A DNA stretch of 64,000 nucleotides from Isurus oxyrinchus (taxonomy: Eukaryota). The stretch lies in assembly GCA_026770705.1 (NCBI GenBank), contig JANJGN010000020.1, forward strand, positions 76,074,001 through 76,138,000, given 5' to 3'. The notes beneath the pieces were generated by a model, which had not been told where the DNA came from, ran no database searches, and saw only the letters and a list, made by a program, of their open reading frames with translations. Both the position numbers and the translations under genes were made by a program. Shown here in pieces: positions 48,171 through 58,208 of the stretch (positions are counted from its first letter, which is position 1; each line of letters begins with the position of its first letter).

Positions 48171-48209
48171 AGTTGACGTTTCGAGTCCTCATGACCCTTC
48201 GACAGAACT
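48171..48209 (-). ncRNA. Minimal type I hammerhead ribozyme motif (variant core CUGUCGA)
   Basis: AGTT-CTGTCGA-A-GGGTC(ATGAG)GACTC-GAAAC-GTC-AACT on the minus strand. Confidence 0.7.
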
Positions 48210-48597
48210 TGATTTCGAGTCCAAGAAAGAGTTGAAATATAAGCTGGTTTAAGGTGTGTGTGTGGGGGGCGGAGAGATAGGGAGAGAGAGGTGCTTGTGT
48301 AGACAAACAAGCAGTGATAGAAGCAGATCATCAAAAGATGTCAGTGACAATGGTACAATAGAACACATAGGTGTTAAAGTTAAAGTTGGTGATATTATCT
48401 AAACGAATGTGCTAATTAAGAATGGATGGTAGGGCACTCAAGGTACAGCTCTAGTGGGGGTGGGGAGAGCATAAAAGATTTTAAAATATTTAAAAATAAT
48501 GGAAATAGGTGGGAAAAGAAAAATCTATAAAATTTATAGGGAAAAAAAAGGGGGAAAAAGGGGGAAACAGAAAGGGGGTGGGGATGGGGGAGGGAGC

Positions 48598-50930
48598 TCA
48601 CGACCTAAAGTTATTGAATTCAATATTCAGACCGGAAGGCTGTAAGGTGCCTAGTCGGAAGATGAGGTGTTGTTCCTCCAGTTTGCGTTGGGCTTCACTG
48701 GAACAATGCAGTAAGCCAAGGACAGACATGTGGGCAAGAGAGCAGGGTGGAGTGTTAAAATGGCAAGCCACAGGGAGGTTTGGGTCATTCTTGCGGACAG
48801 ACTGCAGGTGTTCTGCAAAGCGGTCGCCCAGTTTACGTTTGGTCTCTCCAATGTAGAGGAGACCACATTGGGAACAACGAATGCAGTAGACTAAGTTGGG
48901 GGAAATGCAAGTGAAATGCTGCTTCACTTGAAAGGAGTGTTTGGGCCCTTGGACGGTGAGGAGAGAGGAAGTGAAGGGGCAGGTGTTACATCTTTTGCGT
49001 GGGCATGGGGTGGTGCCATAGGAGGGGGTTGAGGAGTAGGGGGTGATGGAGGAGTGGACCAGGGTGTCCCGGAGGGAGCGATCCCTACGGAATGCCGATA
49101 AGGGGGGTGAAGGGAAGATGTGTTTGGTGGTGGCATCATGCTGGAGTTGGCGGAAATGGCGGAGGATGATCCTTTGAATGCGGAGGCTGGTGGGGTGATA
49201 AGTGAGGACAAGGGGGACCCTATCATGTTTCTGGGAGGGAGGAGAAGGCGTGAGGGCGGATGCGCGGGAGATGGGCCGGACACGGTTGAGGGCCCTGTCA
49301 ACGACCGTGGGTGGAAAACCTTGGTTAAGGAAGAAGGAGGACATGTCAGAGGAACCGTTTTTGAAGGTAGCATCATCGGAACAGATGCGACGAAGGCGAA
49401 GGAACTGGGAGAATGGGATGGAGTCCTTACAGGAAGCGGGGTGTGAGGAGCTGTAGTCGAGGTAGCTGTGGGAGTCGGTGGGTTTGTAATGGATATTGGT
49501 GGACAGTCTATCACCAGAGATTGAGACAGAGAGGTCAAGGAAGGGAAGGGAAGTGTCAGAGATGGACCACGTGAAAATGATGGAGGGGTGGAGATTGGAA
49601 GCAAAATTAATAAATTTTTCCAAGTCCCGACGAGAGCATGAAGCGGCACCGAAGTAATCATCGATGTACCGGAGAAAAAGATGTGGAAGGGGGCCGGGGT
49701 AGGACTGCAACAAGGAATGTTCCACATATCCCATAAAGAGACAGGCATAGCTGGGGCCCATGCGGGTACCCATAGCCACACCTTTTATTTGGAGAAAGTG
49801 AGAGGAGTTGAAGGAGAAATTGTTCAACGTGAGAACAAGTTCAGCCAGACGGAGGAGAGTAGTGGTGGATGGGGATTGTTCAGGCCTCTGTTCAAGGAAG
49901 AAGCTAAGGGCCCTCAGACCATCCTGGTGGGGGATGGAGGTGTAGAGGGATTGGACGTCCATGGTGAAGAGGAAGCGGTTGGAGCCAGGGAACTGGAAAT
50001 TGTTGATGTGACGTAAGGTGTCAGAGGAATCACGGATGTAGGTGGGAAGGGACTGGACAAGGGGAGAGAGAAGGGAGTCAAGATAATGAGAAATGAGTTC
50101 TGTGGGGCAGGAGCAAGCTGAGACGATCGGTCTACCGGGGCAGTTCTGTTTGTGGATTTTGGGTAGGAGATAGAAGCGGGCCGAGGTTGGGCGAGTATCA
50201 GGTTGGAAGCTGTGGGAGGGAGATCCCCAGAGGAGATGAGGTCAGTGACAGTCCTGGAAACAATGGCTTGATGTTCAGTGGTGGGGTCATGGTCCAGGGA
50301 GAGGTAGGAGGAAGTGTCTGCGAGTTGACGCTCAGCCTCCGTGAGGTAGAGGTCAGTGCGCCAGACAACAACAGCACCACCCTTGTCAGCGGGTTTGATG
50401 ACAATGTCAGGGTTGGACCTGAGAGAATGGAGTGCAGTAAGTTCAGAGAGAGACAGGTTAGAATGGGTGAGAGGAGCAGAGAAATTGAGACGACTAATGT
50501 CGCGCCGACAGTTCTCAATGAAAAGATCAAGAGAAGGTAAGAATCCAGAGGGAGGGGTCCAGGTGGAGGGAGAATATTGGAGATGGGTAAAAGGATCCGT
50601 TGAACTGGGAGAGGACTCCTGCCCGAAGAAGTGAGCCCGGAGACGAAGACGGCGAAAGAAGAGTTCAGTATCATGCCGAGCCCGAAATTCATTGAGGTGA
50701 GGGCGTAAGGGTATGAAACTAAGTCCTTTGCTGAGCACTGAACGTTCAGCATCGGAGAGGGGAAGGTCAGGGGGTATAGTGAATACACGGCTGGGGCTGG
50801 GATTGGAAGATGGGGTGGGGACGGAGGGACAGGCTGGGGTGGAGGGTCCTAGATGGGTGTTGGTGTCGATGAGTTGTTGGAGCTTGCGTTCCTTAGCAGT
50901 TGAGAGAAAGAGAAAAAGTTTCTTGTTGTG
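48598..50930 (-). pseudogene. PLE reverse transcriptase / GIY-YIG endonuclease ORF with one frameshift
   Basis: IKPADKGGAVVV, MDVQSLYTSIP, GVAMGT, YIDD, CPRKRCNTC linker, NLVYCIRC..LLYIGET..RFAEH. Frameshift near 50182: PR, then RFYLLPKIHK in another frame, consistent with a 4-nt loss. Confidence 0.92.
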
Positions 50931-51494
50931 TCGCTTGCCATTTTAACACTCCAACCTGCTCTCTTGCCCACATGTCTGTCCTTGGCTTACTGCATTGTTC
51001 CAGTGAAGCCCAACGCAAACTGGAGGAACAACACCTCATCTTCCGACTAGGCACCTTACAGCCTTCCGGTCTGAATATTGAATTCAATAACTTTAGGTCG
51101 TGAGCTCCCTCCCCCATCCCCACCCCCTTTCTGTTTCCCCCTTTTTTCCCCTTTTTTTTCCCTATAAATTTTATAGATTTTTCTTTTCCCACCTATTTCC
51201 ATTATTTTTAAATATTTTAAAATCTTTTATGCTCCCCCCACCCCCACTAGAGCTGTACCTTGAGTGCCCTACCATCCATTCTTAATTAGCACATTCGTTT
51301 AGATAATATCACCAACTTTAACTTTAACACCGATGTGTTCTTTTGTACCATTGTCACTGACATCTTTTGATGATCTGCTTCTATCACTGCTTGTTTGTCT
51401 ACACAAGCACCTCTGTCTCTCTCTCTCTCTCCGCCCCCCCACACACACACCTTAAACCAGCTTATATTTCAACTCTTTCTTGGACTCGAAATCA

Positions 51495-51533
51495 AGTTCT
51501 GTCGAAGGGTCATGAGGACTCGAAACGTCAACT
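51495..51533 (+). ncRNA. Minimal hammerhead ribozyme motif (variant core) in the inverted pLTR
   Basis: Identical motif on the plus strand. Confidence 0.7.
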
Positions 51534-56532: not shown

Positions 56533-56605
56533 CCCCCAGCGTGGGGCTCCAAGACCTGACCCTGAAATTAAGCGTTTTATATTCTATTGACTGAGGTAGC
56601 CGGGA
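56533..56605 (-). pseudogene. tRNA-Lys(CTT) pseudogene
   Basis: Reverse complement aligns to GCCCGGCTAGCTCAGTCGGTAGAGCATGAGACTCTTAATCTCAGGGTC..GAGCCCCACG with many substitutions. Confidence 0.75.
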
Positions 56606-57912
56606 ATGGGGGAAGGAATCCTTCATACCCCAACACATATGGCGACAGACGTGTTTTTTTTACCTGGAGCCTCAGCTTGTTCCGAATCTGAATGTAGAAG
56701 GGAGTCGACCTACAAAAGCCCCAAGGTTGCAATGCATTCCTCTCAATCTCAGTAACATCGTTCACATCTTCCACTTCTTAGTTAGACCTCCTTCCAAAAA
56801 TTTCAAACTCTCTCTTTCATTTTTCATCCTCACATTTTTCGCTAACATTTTAACATGAAGTTGTACAACTAATTTAAATAAAGTTAGTGATGGTAAAAAT
56901 GTGTTCACCCCTCGGGGAACTGACTCACATTGACACACACAGAGCAACACGCACAAACATATGCACCGAGGGTGACAGAGGGCAAGGGTTTGTCTCTAAG
57001 GAGAGGCAAATATCCATAAAGCAAGCATGACACCAAGTTTTATTCCAGTTCCAAGTTTCATGAGTGTTTTCGTGAACGAACAGAAATAGAAAAAAACCCA
57101 AGTGTTTGTATGGATTTTATTGAATTTAACCGATAATTAACTCTGTAGACACATTTTAAACCAGGAATAATGACAAGTGGGAATCTCAATGGACTTGGGC
57201 TCCATCACCTAAATCAATCGACCACAACAACTGGCCCTGTGCACAGGTTAATGTCGATGGTATAAAATCATAAATATCTACAGCAGAGGAAGACGACATT
57301 CTGCCCATCGTGACAATGCCGGCTGATGGCAAAAGGAATACAGCTAATTTGATAACCCCACATTTTCTCTACTGCAATTTAAATTGATATTGTCTCTCCT
57401 CCCTCTTCCTGTTAAAATGAAGAATGACAGGCATCTATTTTGACAGTGAGCTGGCACCTTTTGCATCATTCGCGTTTGTAGTTGCATGTTAAGTGAATGT
57501 AATATATCTCAGTCATATTACATTTCCCATTCACCATTTCACAGGATAAACCCTCAGCAAAGTGAGAAAATCTTTCAGCTGGCTGTGGGTGATTGGAGAG
57601 TGGGGGGCCGGAATATAACTACTTTTCTGCTTTTCTCTGTCTCACTCACTGTGGAGCCGAGAAAGAGAGAATCATTGACGGGTTTCTTTGAATCCAATAA
57701 TTTCACAGGTGTCTATTGAGTTAGGTGTAATTATATAGTCGTTTATTGTTTTTTATTGTGTTTGAAATGAACATTCAAAACAAAAACATCGGTGTGGGAA
57801 CACATTGGTTAAGGGTAAAGTTTGTGGGATAATTCCTTGCAGCTCACGTAGCCAATGAGAGCCCGGAACTGTGTGACAATGAAAGCTGATAGGGAAAAAA
57901 ACTTGACACTTT

Positions 57913-57986
57913 TGTCTCTGGGTGGTTTTGAACCATCAACTTTTTGCTTAACAGTCGAATGCAATAAACAATTGCACCACAGAGAC
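57913..57986 (-). pseudogene. tRNA-Asn(GTT) pseudogene
   Basis: Reverse complement GTCTCTGTGGTGCAATTGTTTATTGCATTCGACTGTTAAGCAAAAAGTTGATGGTTCAAAACCACCCAGAGACA. Confidence 0.8.
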
Positions 57987-58069
57987 AGACATAAGGCTGA
58001 CTTGCCAACTTTCCTAAACCAGGGTGTCAGTGAATTTAAGCTTCAGATTGCTGCTACCGGACTGACAAT

Positions 58070-58208
58070 CCTAGTTCTGTCGAAGGGTCATGAGGCCTCG
58101 AAATGTCAACTCTTTTCTTCTCTGCCGATGCTGCCAGACCTGCTGAGTTTTTCCAGGTAATTCTGTTTTTGTTTTGGATTTCCAGCATCCGCAGTTTTTT
58201 TGTTTTTA
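58070..58208 (+). mobile_element. 139-bp PLE 3'-end insertion starting at the hammerhead motif, 7-bp TSD
   Basis: TSD TGACAAT (58063-58069, 58209-58215); hammerhead motif at 58073-58111. Confidence 0.85.

Follow-up and report, generated by a model that had tools for sequence, protein, structure and literature searches.

The window analyzed here, a 64,000-nucleotide (nt) stretch of the Isurus oxyrinchus genome (assembly GCA_026770705.1, contig JANJGN010000020.1, forward-strand positions 76,074,001 to 76,138,000), carries three insertions of a Penelope-like element (PLE) whose pseudo-long terminal repeats (pseudo-LTRs) contain a 39-nt motif that resembles a hammerhead ribozyme with U in place of the conserved core base A6 (Table 1). 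Of the seven CTGTCGA words found within the window, five stand at the head of this shared motif, which reads, as RNA, AGUU, CUGUCGA, an extra A, stem II (GGGUC/GACUC) with a 5-nt loop, GAAACGUC, and AACU. The preliminary description of this DNA had reported CTGTCGA in all five copies, stem I (AGUU/AACU), stem II, and an ACGT palindrome unbroken in four of them, and the canonical CTGAAGA or CTGATGA in older PLEs nearby, and all three statements were borne out. The exceptional copy is the one at 58073, with an A-to-C change within stem II and ATGT replacing the palindrome; the four A6 relatives are all decayed. The five motifs represent only three insertions, each of which is flanked by short direct repeats.

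The element and its motif

The open reading frame (ORF) of insertion 1 gives matches to the RVT_1 domain (E value of 7e-08) and the GIY-YIG domain (E value of 2.4e-04, slightly below the curated cut-off) and is frameshifted, with 4 bases missing near position 50183 relative to an ORF-open copy. Between the reverse transcriptase (RT) and the endonuclease it contains the sequence CPRKRCNTC, which conforms to the CX2-5CxxC linker that marks Neptune and Nematis PLEs (PMC8557442; this and the other papers are cited for the parts of them that were covered). The element is therefore assigned to the Neptune-type PLEs from its linker sequence, which fits Neptune or Nematis alike. As in endonuclease-containing (EN+) PLEs, a single ORF combines the RT with a C-terminal GIY-YIG domain, and partial tandem pseudo-LTRs, an inverted 5'-truncated copy, and a tail are all present. 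The nearest named proteins come from sharks and rays (61-68% identity). A search with an ORF probe found a sense-strand motif upstream in 14 of 30 loci, and all 14 full-length tandem copies have the sense-strand motif in both pseudo-LTRs, with U6 in both repeats; 9 of the 14 retain an open ORF of 918 amino acids (aa) that starts 170 bases past the core residue C3. The family has been recently active, since 28 of the 40 places scored reach the top score over a 329-base probe.

Compared with the core of the PLE minimal type I hammerhead (C3 U4 G5 A6 N7 G8 A9), the motif fails at A6 alone. G12 A13 A14, the A15.1-U16.1 pair, and H17 are present (as GAAACGUC in four of the five window copies), as are a five-pair stem II with G10.1-C11.1 and the extra base after A9, and a 4-bp stem I with a palindromic stem III that permits a dimer. 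An Rfam scan of the window returned no hammerhead families among 20 matches at E values of ≤10, so its identification as a hammerhead depends on the published minimal descriptor together with the A6 relatives that this genome contains. With a pyrimidine at position 6, the purine contact of the U-turn is lost. Judged from its sequence, the shark motif is hammerhead-like in shape and place, lacks the A6 feature, and is not classed as an active member. Small PLE-associated hammerhead variants that cleave as dimers were reportedly described by Lunse, Weinberg, and Breaker in 2017, to go by the title of that paper; neither an A6U hammerhead nor a rate for one was found in the literature searched, which included bioRxiv 10.64898/2026.07.22.740005 but not that paper.

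Constraint from protein coding on U6 was considered and ruled out, as the main ORF begins well beyond the motif and only two small ORFs ahead of the main one, of 18 and 10 codons (at C3+13 and C3+51, both out of frame with the main ORF), begin within or after it. At 54010-54110, the two head-to-head motifs of insertion 2 form a near-perfect inverted repeat, the transcript of which would be a long RNA hairpin; the microRNA matches that Rfam reports there reflect this fold-back palindrome, score under the gathering threshold, and were rejected.

Table 1. Elements, motif copies, and tRNA-like features of the window (positions within the 64,000-nt stretch)
Feature	Position	Strand	Description
Insertion 1	48070..51598	-	5'-truncated PLE carrying an inverted pseudo-LTR; flanking 13-base direct repeat (48057, 51599)
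RT, CX4CxxC linker, GIY-YIG ORF part	48598..50241	-	547 aa, stop to stop
Upstream ORF part	49914..50942	-	different frame; ORF start missing
Inverted copy of 3' end	50929..51598	+	98.2% identity to 48106-48772
Insertion 2	53909..54741	.	rearranged pseudo-LTR pieces, head-to-head motif pair; flanking 9-base direct repeat (53900, 54742)
Insertion 3	58070..58208	+	motif and tail alone; flanking 7-base direct repeat (58063, 58209)
Motif copy 1	48171..48209	-	C3 48205, U6 48202; insertion 1, 3' pseudo-LTR; predicted cut after 48175
Motif copy 2	51495..51533	+	C3 51499, U6 51502; insertion 1, inverted pseudo-LTR
Motif copy 3	54004..54042	-	C3 54038, U6 54035; insertion 2
Motif copy 4	54078..54116	+	C3 54082, U6 54085; insertion 2, fold-back arm starting at first stem I base
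Motif copy 5	58073..58111	+	C3 58077, U6 58080; insertion 3, solo stub
Older decayed A6 relative (CTGAAGA)	28098..28136	+	C3 28102
Older decayed A6 relative (CTGAAGA)	63437..63475	+	C3 63441
Other older decayed A6 relatives (CTGAAGA/CTGATGA)		-	C3 59773 and 62371
tRNA genes or tRNA-like copies	47712-47795, 55472-55545, 57913-57986, 61008-61080, 61738-61814, 62082-62154		ARAGORN

Position 6 across the genome and its history

A 31-letter motif pattern with positions 6 and 7 left free has 78,939 exact matches in the 4.98-Gb assembly (both arms of inverted insertions being counted) versus 0 for the reversed control, so the motif is not a chance occurrence. U6 is found in 77,050 of these matches (97.6%) and A6 in 138 (0.17%), and the remaining 1,751 have C or G. 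This count, which had been proposed in the preliminary description, yields a U6 consensus in a motif with all hammerhead pairings available, rather than an A6 consensus or a motif unable to fold. The 100 C or G matches listed comprise 84 CTGCTGA, 10 CTGCCGA, and 1 CTGCAGA words and only 5 with G, which puts the frequency of A6 near that of another transversion. Three young A6 copies nest in the U6-C7 clade of a tree of 58 copies (at least 350 upstream bases each, with the motif left out and the oldest subfamily unrepresented), and several inverted pairs have A6 in one arm only. No young A6 sister subfamily was seen in this material; judging from their upstream sequences, the young A6 copies are revertants from U6 that behave as single events. 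In the same tree, which does not root the series, two A6-U7 copies take weakly supported positions among the early U6 copies. The CTGCTGA form (A6C) accounts for about 1,500 matches, as extrapolated from those listed. C6 is found on several upstream backgrounds and may have more than one origin, and some C6 templates may have been active, as one inverted pair has C6 in both arms.

The U6-C7 form is not private to one assembly, because CTGTCGA, with the older of its two upstream variants, is also matched by contigs from another organism (run X5; 415,339 of the 425,166 summed depth there); mismatched ends were clipped in these contigs, so that an A6 count is not obtainable from them. Two further organisms gave 2 and 0 matching reads.

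Wider patterns recover 7,646 A6 motifs and 9,491 non-A6 motifs with U17, the latter being nearly all CTGTTGA among 100 matches listed. Six subfamily forms are separated by stepwise changes: the first three run from CUGAAGA to CUGAUGA with a stem I pair repaired and on to CUGUUGA, and the next three add, in turn, a stem II change from A-U to G-U along with a loop change; U17 to C together with two further loop changes; and U7 to C. The 39-nt motifs of the CUGAUGA and CUGUUGA subfamilies are identical except for position 6, and U6 is carried by four successive subfamilies. An unselected 1-Mb sample, in which copies were found by their tails only, contained 121 copies (67 of the U6/C6 subfamilies and 54 of the A6 subfamilies), and position 6 could be aligned in 78 of them (47 U, 25 A, and 6 C). 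The median divergence was 0.103 for A6 copies versus 0.042 for U6 copies, each copy being compared with the closest of six references, a procedure that inflates the values of old, mixed subfamilies. The 37 copies within 5% of a reference included 33 with U, 3 with C, and 1 with A. The U6 subfamilies overlap in age (0.034-0.065; youngest, 0.013), and their order rests on shared characters. Since A6 copies are more diverged and U6 is carried by four successive subfamilies, U6 is the derived state and predates the youngest burst. U6 is present in all five young copies of the window, as the preliminary description had it, but is not a mark of the youngest copies only.

In the youngest subfamily, stem I is directly preceded by 10 bases that duplicate GGACTCGAAA of the motif itself (48210-48235 on the minus strand and 51469-51494 on the plus strand); this copy arose stepwise from a pyrimidine tract ending in AG that is seen in older subfamilies and resembles a splice acceptor there. 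The upstream GACUC was considered as a substitute stem II strand and discarded (predicted p of 0.00). At least 7 near-identical decayed copies of an old subfamily lie inside 0.8 Mb of one contig, which suggests a larger repeated unit.

Copy ends, constraint, and the case for dispensable cleavage

If RNAs were cut and then copied, insertions beginning at the cut would be expected. According to a rough script, copies end at about C3+95-104 (23 of 55) and C3+120-130 (25 of 55), both clusters falling beyond the predicted cut at C3+30. Junction patterns that require three foreign bases ahead of the consensus detected 189 5' junctions genome-wide at the cut site versus 145 three bases further under the same filter; at the first stem I base there were 1,715 under a stricter filter, more than half of those among the matches listed being one recurrent fold-back junction. 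In the 1-Mb sample, a start at the cut ±2 bases is seen in none of the 67 U6/C6-subfamily copies and in 5 of the 54 A6-subfamily copies, the latter figure being blurred by decay; 19 of the 67 start at C3-6 to C3+1. For the oldest A6 subfamily, the cut-site pattern gave 203 matches, many of them short deletions, with no control count alongside. The RNAs that were copied probably were uncut, to judge from these junctions, in the U6 and A6 groups alike. At the first stem I bases, 5' ends and fold-back junctions accumulate strongly in both groups (in the window at 54078 and 58073, and genome-wide), which may reflect the start of transcription, a splice junction, or a stop by the RT.

The explanation to which we would give an even chance is that of a weakened or dead ribozyme with dispensable cutting, in an active PLE lineage with fixed U6. 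The pseudo-LTR hammerhead of this lineage has U fixed in place of A6, with cutting likely poor or absent; transcription would begin at or near the first stem I base, and the element protein would start reverse transcription ~100 and ~125 bases downstream of C3, past the cut site, and run through the motif. Because the RT would start beyond the cut site and copying would pass through the motif, cleavage would not be a required step. The weakest step is the suggestion that the rest of the motif is kept for a non-catalytic job at the 5' end (a start site, an RNA shape, or a sequence read by the protein). The preliminary description had offered two alternatives, a lineage that no longer needs self-cleavage and a natural catalytic variant; the former is the better supported and the latter less so, and neither is unprecedented, as a natural A6C variant (PMC3088659) and the dispensability of cleavage for insertion in vitro (PMC11167929) have already been published.

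Several observations weigh against dispensable cutting by a U6 motif. The A6 subfamilies also start at the motif start (13 of 54 copies in the 1-Mb sample), and the missing cut-site peak does not set U6 apart from the A6 families; furthermore, junctions report copied RNAs only, and RNAs that were cut and not copied could exist. Since the A6U change, none of the 21 positions of the core, stem I, and stem III has changed, and 4 of the 7 free positions (N7, N17, and loop II with three events) have. With stem II added (1 of 10 positions changed, the pair being kept as G-U), the comparison is 1 of 31 versus 4 of 7 (Fisher p of 0.002, for a grouping picked after the data were seen), a pattern suggestive of selection still acting on the hammerhead itself.

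From the first to the youngest U6 subfamily, changes affected 67 of 320 positions in the 3' untranslated region (UTR), 11 of 100 ORF third positions, and 5 of 58 tail positions, so that, depending on the background, the probability of 0 changes in 21 ranges from 0.007 to 0.15. The tail also has an unchanged block, and constraint is therefore not limited to the hammerhead. The constraint on the motif would fit residual cleavage or a structural role alike and, though only suggestive, forms the chief argument against the motif being a plain relic.

Folding models, which leave out tertiary contacts and do not settle activity, predict stem II with a p of 0.98 in the isolated 39-nt motif. An open core is rare across all subfamilies (P of 0.007-0.18), and a nested double-hammerhead structure can be constructed (-10.1 kcal/mol) but is the predicted minimum in no subfamily, A6 ones included. 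Its cost above the best fold is 8.1 kcal/mol in the youngest form, 8.3-8.9 in the A6 ancestors, and 11.1-12.6 in the U6-U7 forms. In a U6A revertant of the youngest form the cost rises to 16.1 kcal/mol, because base pairing between CUGACG and the cleavage strand is predicted, and the plain revertant is therefore a poor control. Burial of the core by A6U through a UCGA-UCGA helix was rejected (predicted p of 0.01 or less).

The best-surviving rival explanation, doubtful but deserving serious attention, is a slow working variant in which U6 lowers the rate, dimerization and the element protein (or Mn2+) rescue enough cleavage, and selection keeps the core. It accounts for the restriction of the post-A6U changes to positions that are free to vary in hammerheads (U17 to C included), with the catalytic G8 and G12 spared, and the youngest form pays no more for the double hammerhead than its A6 ancestors do. 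The Anolis motif cleaves only with protein (PMC11167929), and the natural A6C hammerhead cuts well in Mn2+ (PMC7151607). However, the intermediate U6-U7 subfamilies, whose core is predicted to close up as a rod, spread regardless, minimal PLE hammerheads are weak even with A6 (PMC4209133), and the copies carry no cut-site footprint. A separate proposal, which we find rather improbable and put forward tentatively, is that the hammerhead scaffold was repurposed, i.e., silenced by A6U, with its fold selected through four subfamily turnovers as a 5' structure needed by the protein. If so, PLE "ribozymes" would serve primarily as structural signals and only secondarily as cutters; the CUGAUGA and CUGUUGA subfamilies supply natural sequences from before and after the change.

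That the motif is a functionless relic, with A6U having drifted in on a master copy and the remaining core undecayed by chance, appears unlikely. With the lower backgrounds (ORF third positions and tail), the chance of 0 changes in 21 is 0.09-0.15, and predictions for the youngest form with 30-60 flanking bases seldom include stem II (p of about 0.05). Still, 67 of 320 positions of the 3' UTR directly upstream changed over the same span, and of the 16 unpaired core positions, those that actually changed are N7 and N17. Flanked folding does not discriminate function, because it is poor in all subfamilies, A6 ancestors included. Least probable of all, and by our estimate very unlikely, is that A6U was itself favored because cleavage destroys templates and the non-cutting allele out-copied its A6 relatives: the single A6 among the 37 young copies and the idea, raised by the authors of PMC8557442, of hammerheads as parasites of PLEs would fit, but one substitution on one master lineage is indistinguishable from hitch-hiking, and A6 subfamilies are abundant as well (54 of 121 copies), with the same 5' ends.

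Relation to known hammerheads and PLEs

Like the minimal type I hammerheads of metazoan PLEs (Cervera and De la Pena 2014, PMC4209133), the shark motif has a short stem I, an extra base between A9 and 10.1, G10.1-C11.1, and a palindrome for stem III, is found in both pseudo-LTRs, and has many solo or inverted copies. Unlike them, it has a lineage-wide U6; the core variant named in that paper is U3-A8, and, among the CUGU matches in its supplement, the three displayed lie in stems or flanks. The A6C hammerhead of phage Bcep176 likewise combines a position-6 pyrimidine with a core that is complete elsewhere; it is a single phage locus with a measured rate below 0.1/min, far slower in Mg2+, and a preference for Mn2+ (PMC3088659, PMC7151607). 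The shark motif differs from it in having U (with C in about 2% of matches), in being of the minimal dimer type, and in its tens of thousands of copies. In a pairwise scan of a type III hammerhead, single and double changes of the CUGA turn were low in activity, except for a C3-G8 swap (PMC9901934).

The Poseidon element PAc of Anolis carolinensis (PMC11167929) likewise has its hammerhead upstream of two internal RT starts that give the tail. Its substrate is uncut RNA, and the RNA copied by the shark element looks uncut likewise; PAc insertion was unaffected by hammerhead mutants, and none of the RNA reads terminated at the cut site. In PAc, cutting is protein-assisted and the motif overlaps the ORF start, whereas the shark ORF starts past the motif and encodes the Neptune/Nematis linker. 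Naiads and most Chlamys PLEs have also proliferated without canonical hammerheads (PMC8557442); these have an N-terminal endonuclease and no recognizable full motif, in contrast to the C-terminal endonuclease and the one-base-different motif of the shark element.

PLE hammerheads are nearly universal, yet weak in vitro and unneeded for insertion in the single reconstituted system. One vertebrate lineage has now been found to have undergone a single core-base change followed by tens of thousands of copies, and its ordered natural alleles (A6, U6, and C6) allow the role of the hammerhead to be tested on naturally occurring sequences. A dead U6 would mean that PLEs can dispense with cleavage in vivo, and the retained fold would then indicate some other function; a cutting U6 would be a tolerated core variant beside A6C, and strict CUGANGA searches would be missing whole families.

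Elsewhere in the window, runs of N are found at 30522-30746 and 40067-40213, outside the region of interest. The window also contains a tRNA cluster that includes genes and decayed tRNA-like copies, with ARAGORN calls of Ser, Glu, and Val.

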